Assembly (NCBI RefSeq): GCF_053078305.1
Contig: NZ_CP166879.1
DNA: 64,000 nucleotides
Reading direction: 5' to 3' (one strand)
Shown here in pieces: positions 21,455-21,775 of this stretch. The notes under the pieces are model-generated. The model was not told the DNA's origin and ran no database searches. It saw only the letters and a list, made by a program, of their open reading frames with translations. Both the position numbers and the translations under genes were made by a program. Each line of letters begins with the position of its first letter. The stretch's first letter is position 1.

Positions 21455-21775
21455 GCCTGTATGCCGGATAAGGCGCTCGCGCCGCATCCGGCATGAAATA
21501 AGGCGCACCGGGTCAACACATATGCCCGATGCGCAAGCTTATCGGGCCTACAGAGAGGGAAAGCTGCGTTTATTTGCGTTGGCAGACACCTGTAGGCCGG
21601 ATAAGGCGCTCGCGCCGCATCCGGCATGAAATAAGGCGCATCGGGTTAACACATATGCCCGATGCGCCATCTTATCGGGTCTTCAGGGAAAGCCGCGATT
21701 ACTTGCGTTGGCAGATACCTGTAGGCCGGATAAGGCGTTTTACGCCGCATCCGGCAAGTTACAACAAACAACCTT
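21455..21775. repeat. REP/BIME cluster: tandemly duplicated ~150-bp unit carrying REP palindromes
   Basis: Repeated gccggataaggcg...cgccgcatccggc palindromes; two near-identical ~150-bp tandem units followed by a third partial copy. Confidence 0.85.

Follow-up and report, generated by a model that had tools for sequence, protein, structure and literature searches.

The spacer between sslE and pppA in the window, as we call the whole 64,000-nucleotide stretch of DNA analysed here, is almost certainly an atypical BIME, tandemly duplicated in this genome into two units (A and B) and a terminal y-REP. The explanation that we consider probable, taken as a whole, is that of an atypical BIME forming a variable tandem repeat and exerting a classic intercistronic REP effect.

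Anatomy of the sslE-pppA spacer

The sslE gene encodes a lipoprotein metalloprotease that is a substrate of the T2SS-beta system, and pppA is the first gene of the secretion machinery. The window is Escherichia coli DNA, and its positions 21000-22200 are 100% identical to strain A16. The spacer is 326 bp long in the window, and nearly all of it is tandem repeat. The main features are as follows.

16889-21454, + strand: sslE (yghJ), with its TAA stop codon at 21452-21454, placed from the RefSeq annotation of the identical A16 junction
21456-21588, + strand: BIME unit A, 133 nt, from the Tandem Repeats Finder period of 133, the unit decomposition and the identity matrix
21589-21717, + strand: BIME unit B, 129 nt, 89% identical to unit A in the MAFFT alignment
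21718-21756: third, partial unit, a lone y-REP plus a short lead-in
21757-21780, + strand: pppA leader, AGTTACAACAAACAACCTTTAACC, CA-rich by its sequence
21781-22590, + strand: pppA, prepilin peptidase, 269 aa, from RefSeq, the translation and the Pfam domains A24_N_bact and Peptidase_A24

Translation of sslE from the ATG at 16889 gives a lipoprotein signal of the form MNKKF...LLAGC (MNKKFKYKKSLLAAILSATLLAGC). The program-made open reading frame for this gene begins earlier, at a TTG at 16871, and so carries a small extension (16871-16891), the second such extension in the ORF track. At the other end of the spacer, the pppA leader has no recognisable Shine-Dalgarno sequence within 21757-21780. 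Across all alleles and E. albertii it differs by only a few substitutions, and an in-frame TAA lies inside it in several alleles.

Tandem Repeats Finder reports an array at 21456-21756 (+ strand) with a period of 133, 2.3 copies, 88% matches, 2% indels and a score of 459. A separate repeat search returned a pair of 101 nt (92% identity, spacing 133) and a pair of 53 nt (92% identity, spacing 129). The longest exact direct repeat within 21200-22000 is 45 nt; in 300 dinucleotide-preserving shuffles of that interval the longest repeat averaged 9.2 nt and never exceeded 14 nt, so the array lies far above chance. Misassembly was considered as a source of the duplication and ruled out, as the array recurs in 112 independently sequenced complete genomes.

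An earlier note on this DNA had described two near-identical units of about 150 bp between sslE and pppA, each with REP palindromes and followed by a third partial copy. Both searches confirm the tandem duplication, REP palindromes are indeed present in each unit, and the third copy exists in the form of a single y-REP with its short lead-in. The lengths given were too great, since the units measure 133 and 129 nt, and "near-identical" was too strong a term for a pair separated by ten substitutions and one 4-nt deletion in unit B.

REP modules and class of the element

Each unit, read on the + strand, consists of a y-REP, a 30-nt head-to-head linker, a z1-like inverted REP and a tail-to-tail linker of 36-40 nt. 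The modules, with the predicted hairpins that they form, are these.

21459-21493, + strand: y-type REP 1, with GTAT replacing the canonical GTAG, from the naRNA4 y-REP alignment; hairpin of -24.0 kcal/mol
21494-21523, + strand: head-to-head linker A, 30 nt, in which GGCGCACCGGG pairs with the head of z1-like REP A
21502-21535, + strand: inner hairpin A, formed by GGCGCACCGGG of linker A and the head of the z1-like REP; -17.6 kcal/mol
21524-21551, + strand: z1-like inverted REP A, GCCCGATGCGCAAGCTTATCGGGCCTAC, with CTAC at its end, from comparison with canonical z1
21552-21591, + strand: tail-to-tail linker A, 40 nt, with an A/U-rich centre, GCGTTTATTTGCG
21592-21626, + strand: y-type REP 2, with canonical GTAG, the best partial match to naRNA4 (37 bits); -20.9 kcal/mol
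21630-21673, + strand: inner hairpin B, an inverted repeat with 16-nt arms, AATAAGGCGCATCGGG and CCCGATGCGCCATCTT; -25.5 kcal/mol, z = -4.6
21657-21684, + strand: z1-like inverted REP B, with a decayed tail (GGGTCTTC where unit A has GGGCCTAC)
21685-21720, + strand: tail-to-tail linker B, 36 nt
21721-21756, + strand: y-type REP 3, the partial third unit, with GTAG; naRNA4 match of 35.9 bits; -21.7 kcal/mol

The y-REPs follow the layout GTAG-GCCGGATAAGGCG-loop-CGCCGCATCCGGCA on the + strand, and CGCCGCATCCGGCA was found three times in the array by the repeat search. Each of the three aligns, base for base, to the y-REP portion of the Rfam model derived from REP325 and carries an AA/GC internal stem mismatch; GTAG itself is present in REP 2 and REP 3 only. 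The GTAG and the AA/GC stem mismatch are the recognition features for the REP-associated transposase (Ton-Hoang 2012, PMC3333891). We therefore have the properties of y-type REPs: imperfect palindromes of about 35 nt with GTAG and the stem mismatch, in an extragenic position between the stop at 21454 and the start at 21781. The orientation of the REPs alternates along the array, with GTAG first in the y-REPs and CTAC last in the z1-like REPs, as is general for BIMEs.

The partner REP required a closer comparison. At 28 nt, it resembles z1, the partner of y in BIME-1 elements, in length and sequence, with an altered stem pair and loop: where canonical z1 (GCCTGATGCGCTACGCTTATCAGGCCTAC) has a T-A pair, the REP at sslE-pppA has a compensatory C-G pair, and its loop is one base shorter. 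The z2 found in the BL21 sequence is 35 nt long, and the partner REP is clearly different from it; the canonical z1 and z2 used as references here are examples located in the BL21 sequence and not the published consensus figure. In unit B, the CTAC of the z1-like REP has become CTTC. A longer alternative hairpin also forms when the head of this REP pairs with the linker upstream, and inner hairpin B overlaps the head of z1-like REP B in this way. Tail-to-tail linker A has no significant structure by itself (z = 0.17 in RNA folding).

BIME-1 elements occur singly and contain an IHF site in a conserved L linker, whereas the array at sslE-pppA is tandem (2.3 units), and no match to the IHF consensus WATCAANNNNTTR was found on either strand of the spacer with up to one mismatch allowed. 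BIME-2 elements have a z2 partner and a short S linker; the tandem trait of that class does fit, but the partner here is the 28-nt z1-like REP and the head-to-head linker is 30 nt. The combination of y and z1-like REPs, a long linker, tandem units and no IHF consensus thus excludes both classes. Atypical BIMEs have been described as multi-copy elements with chimeric y/z1/z2 REPs and linkers, in which the linkers and the copy number depend on the strain (PMC3333891). The spacer has this composition, with y and z1-like REPs joined by a long linker in a tandem of 1.3-4.3 units whose linkers vary across strains, and it shares with the E. coli BIMEs of the Gilson/Bachellier classification an extragenic position, tandem repetition and a strain-dependent copy number.

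In Rfam, the spacer has only sub-threshold matches to naRNA4 (RF02564), at 31-37 bits versus a gathering score of 59.5. REP325/naRNA4 and the sslE-pppA array share the y-REP sequence and the tandem BIME layout, but they have different partner REPs and different linkers, and the score falls well short of the family threshold. No repeat feature is annotated in the K-12 counterpart of the spacer in the feature table of NC_000913.3, and the text of the RepRanger supplement has no mention of yghJ, sslE or pppA. A full-text literature search for yghJ with "repetitive extragenic" returned nothing, and the same search with sslE returned one unrelated co-mention only.

A related module is present in the yggR-ruvX spacer of strain CAVP761 (L012, 1204-1310), with 78% identity over 113 nt. 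Its parts are the z1-like REP seen at sslE-pppA, a tail-to-tail linker and a y-like REP in which TTGG/CCAA replaces CCGG. Given this recurrence, the module is a dispersed BIME building block and is not specific to the sslE-pppA locus.

Unit number across strains

A comparison of repeat copy number across strains, which the earlier note had proposed, shows that the spacer ranges from 1.3 to 4.3 units and also occurs in deleted forms. Spacers with 1.3 units measure 197 bp in K-12 and E. albertii and 194 bp in JA0257. The 2.3-unit spacer is found as A-B (326 bp) in the window, in A16 and in O55:H7 CB9615, and as A-A' (330 bp) in FDAARGOS_944. Longer arrays are present in XH990, SCU-316 and KV7 (A-A-B, 3.3 units, 459 bp) and in 88COLEC (A-A-A-B, 4.3 units, 592 bp). 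Internally deleted spacers of 129, 139, 147 and 163 bp were found in F719, CH427, E1, TW10690, P4 and BL21(DE3), the last of which has the 163-bp form.

The sslE-pppA junction is present in about 3,416 genomes. At least 2.3 units are present in 112 of 5,426 complete E. coli genomes (about 2%), and at least 3.3 units in 25 of the 5,426. BLAST coverage is misleading for such counts, because a single-unit allele is aligned twice and looks 100% covered; the counts were made with very strict E-value cut-offs that can be passed only by one long uninterrupted alignment. As a rough estimate from an evenly spaced sample of 40 matches, one full unit is present in about 18%, deleted short forms in about 40-43%, and the locus is missing in about one third. 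The deleted spacers in that sample lack part of the z1-like REP and part of the last y-REP.

The extra units are copies of unit A with 0-1 mismatch, and no difference in the 810-nt pppA gene separates the window, XH990 and 88COLEC; the expansions are thus recent and arose on one haplotype. The basic arrangement is older. We scanned genome contigs with a degenerate PppA motif and obtained six loci, of which those of E. albertii and Escherichia sp. E1V33 were informative; three from metagenome-assembled genomes (two Gammaproteobacteria and one Wenzhouxiangellaceae) were left out. E. albertii has the 197-bp single-unit form and Escherichia sp. E1V33 has the 326-bp A-B form. The 1.3-unit architecture, being present in E. 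albertii, is ancestral and older than the species split. The remaining match, in E. coli E69 (CP089930.1; L021, 150-803), lies in an AT-rich context with no sslE-like sequence upstream, and may be another prepilin peptidase gene.

The first 45 nt or so of units A and B, consisting of the y-REP and TGAAATAAGGCGCA, are identical, and unequal recombination or replication slippage within this stretch would add or remove 133-nt units, possibly with assistance from the REP-associated transposase. Internal deletions may arise between short direct repeats in the unit, such as ATCGGG. The order in XH990, A(GTAT)-A(GTAG)-B, is the exact product expected from one exchange or slippage in the shared start. 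The order in 88COLEC, A(GTAT)-A(GTAT)-A(GTAG)-B, is not given by a single simple crossover within the y-REP, and would need a further event or gene conversion. Judging from these alleles, the locus appears to behave as a variable-number tandem repeat; we infer the recombination route from its products only.

RNA structure and a possible role in the operon

The mRNA strand of the spacer is predicted to form five local hairpins, three from the y-REPs and two inner ones, with free energies of -17.6 to -25.5 kcal/mol, and the whole spacer region has a folding z-score of -6.8. No Rho-independent terminator (hairpin plus U-tract) was found on the + strand in 21300-21900, and no sigma-70-like promoter was found in the spacer region. 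The spacer also has no C-rich stretch (C/G 0.98) and would thus seem a poor place for Rho to load.

Downstream, the T2SS-beta cluster is intact and its genes are closely packed: all of its other junctions are shorter than 70 bp, so that the operon has no large spacer apart from sslE-pppA. After the gsp cluster, only the last ~22 nt of a tRNA-Phe gene (pheV) are present, at 33693-33715 (tggtgccggactcggaatcgaa), and past 33715 the sequence departs from that of strain A16 into AT-rich DNA. ARAGORN found no tRNA anywhere in the window. The pheV remnant appears to mark the boundary of a genomic island inserted at this tRNA gene.

Elsewhere, REPs are documented to impede ribonucleolytic decay, to attenuate transcription and to promote Rho-dependent termination (PMC12306157, PMC2817692). 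The suggestion in the earlier note, that this block may be an mRNA stability or decay boundary and uncouple sslE from pppA-gsp transcript levels, agrees with such behaviour and with the anatomy of the spacer. In enterotoxigenic E. coli (ETEC), sslE and 13 downstream genes are on one mRNA, according to Yang 2007 as cited in PMC5012682, and in the BL21(DE3) transcriptome sslE, pppA, yghG and yghF are co-transcribed with the gsp genes (PMC5435950). The 163-bp allele of BL21 has one y-REP and a strong inner hairpin, that is, two strong hairpins. Co-transcription in ETEC and BL21(DE3) indicates that the element is read through and is not a full boundary. We conclude that the array impedes decay or transcription partially at best, and is not an operon boundary.

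On a polycistronic sslE-pppA-gsp mRNA, the array would fold into its five stable hairpins, which could block 3'-to-5' exonucleases and partly attenuate read-through. The upstream sslE segment would then outlast and outnumber the downstream pppA-gsp segment, and the outcome would be more of the secreted substrate than of the machinery, with the two halves of the operon not fully separated. We infer this model from the anatomy of the spacer (five hairpins, no terminator and no promoter) and from precedent. As an actual, measurable effect at sslE-pppA, such a stabiliser or attenuator role is put forward tentatively, and we doubt it slightly more than we believe it. About 40% of the sampled genomes have deleted spacers and only about 2% have the duplication; with fewer or deleted units in most strains, neither the copy number nor the full set of hairpins can be required.

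The precedent that we have in mind is the REP sequence between malE and malF, for which Newbury, Higgins and co-workers reportedly measured stabilisation of the upstream mRNA in 1987 (cited in PMC12306157). In both operons, REP hairpins separate an upstream gene whose product is needed in abundance from downstream genes whose products are needed less. The malE-malF effect was measured, whereas that at sslE-pppA is deduced, and the sslE-pppA array differs in having five hairpins and a variable number of units.

Alternative explanations

It is somewhat unlikely, in our estimation, that the array is simply neutral or selfish repeat DNA, changing in copy number by recombination or through the REP transposase with no measurable effect on sslE or gsp. 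This reading would account well for the wide range of lengths between strains (129-592 bp) and the loss of whole palindromes in some of them, for the rarity of the duplicated form, and for the decayed REPs in the window (GTAT for GTAG in REP 1 and CTTC for CTAC in unit B). It also agrees with the proposal that BIMEs are non-autonomous mobile elements (PMC2817692, PMC3333891). However, all of the alleles examined, that of E. albertii included, have a y-REP immediately 3' of the stop codon of sslE, and REPs placed in this way have shown effects in other operons (PMC12306157). The conservation of the spacer also counts against neutrality: between K-12 and E. albertii it is 92.9% identical, versus 72-78% for the flanking third-codon positions.

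A similar excess is seen between the window and Escherichia sp. E1V33, with 99.4% identity in the spacer and 86-89% at flanking third-codon positions, yet among E. coli strains the spacer alleles diverge by about 10%. (The loci used for these comparisons were 21455-21780 of the window, 4313-4509 of L019, and L024 with its 326-bp spacer.) The greater conservation of the spacer than of its coding flanks reflects either old allele classes that recombine apart from the flanks, or constraint.

A translational effect, in which the hairpin of REP 1 stalls terminating ribosomes and lowers SslE, is an unlikely explanation and one that would operate independently of the duplication. Liang, Rudd and Deutscher (2015), as described in PMC12306157, proposed that a REP within 15 nt of a stop codon causes ribosome stalling, with nrdAB as an example. 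The stem of REP 1 begins 7-8 nt past the TAA in 10 of the 12 alleles and right at the stop codon in the other 2, well within this distance. Proximity to the stop codon belongs to REP 1 only, though, and stalling there says nothing about the tandem duplication, whose extra units sit downstream of REP 1.

Action at the level of DNA, as a site for gyrase, Pol I or a nucleoid protein, or as a topological or H-NS boundary in the T2SS-beta island, seems improbable. In its favour, the T2SS-beta cluster is regulated by H-NS (PMC5012682). Against it, the spacer has no IHF consensus and a composition that does not stand out from its flanks, and many strains have deleted alleles. A promoter region bound by H-NS and StpA has been described for the operon (PMC5012682); a sharp AT-rich dip (GC 0.30) at 16500-16799, just upstream of sslE, fits that description.

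The ORF track suggests one more reading, in which the repeat has a product of its own, be it a longer form of PppA, small peptides or a small RNA resembling naRNA4. The feature responsible is the following.

21529-21780, + strand: spurious upstream extension of pppA, 84 codons, which reads through REP sequence

The frame of pppA has an upstream ATG at 21529, and the open reading frame that starts there (21529-22590, 353 aa) is pppA plus this extension. The earlier note had called the extension spurious, and the comparison of alleles bears it out. Across the 12 alleles examined, it is 84, 41, 40 or 0 codons long; 6 of the 12 have none, since the frame is closed by a stop shortly before the ATG or lacks a start codon. 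In the 353-aa frame, the Pfam A24_N domain does not start until residue 105, beyond the extension. We therefore regard the extension as an artefact of the ORF calls and reject both a longer PppA and small open reading frames in the repeat. As for a small RNA, the sub-threshold naRNA4 matches come from the shared y-REP only, and we dismiss the whole reading as extremely improbable.

Implications

REP and BIME elements are already known, as is their variation in copy number between strains, tandem BIME number included (PMC3333891), so the series of copy numbers at sslE-pppA is a tidy detail and not a discovery. Its use is mainly one of annotation hygiene, in that the one large spacer is explained and the ORF extension of pppA is flagged as spurious. 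The junction is also polymorphic in length, over the 129-592 bp given above, and could confuse PCR typing or short-read assembly.

A more ambitious possibility is that the unit number (1.3-4.3) serves as a heritable, reversible dial for the ratio of SslE to the T2SS-beta machinery, turned by repeated gain and loss of exact 133-nt units, and has been selected in some lineages. We consider this very improbable. If it were true, the high conservation of the spacer across species, linkers included, would reflect a functional RNA element and not recombination. Should copy number tune SslE, which is a mucinase and a vaccine candidate, against its secretion system, the locus would be a simple, natural example of control of operon stoichiometry by repeat number.
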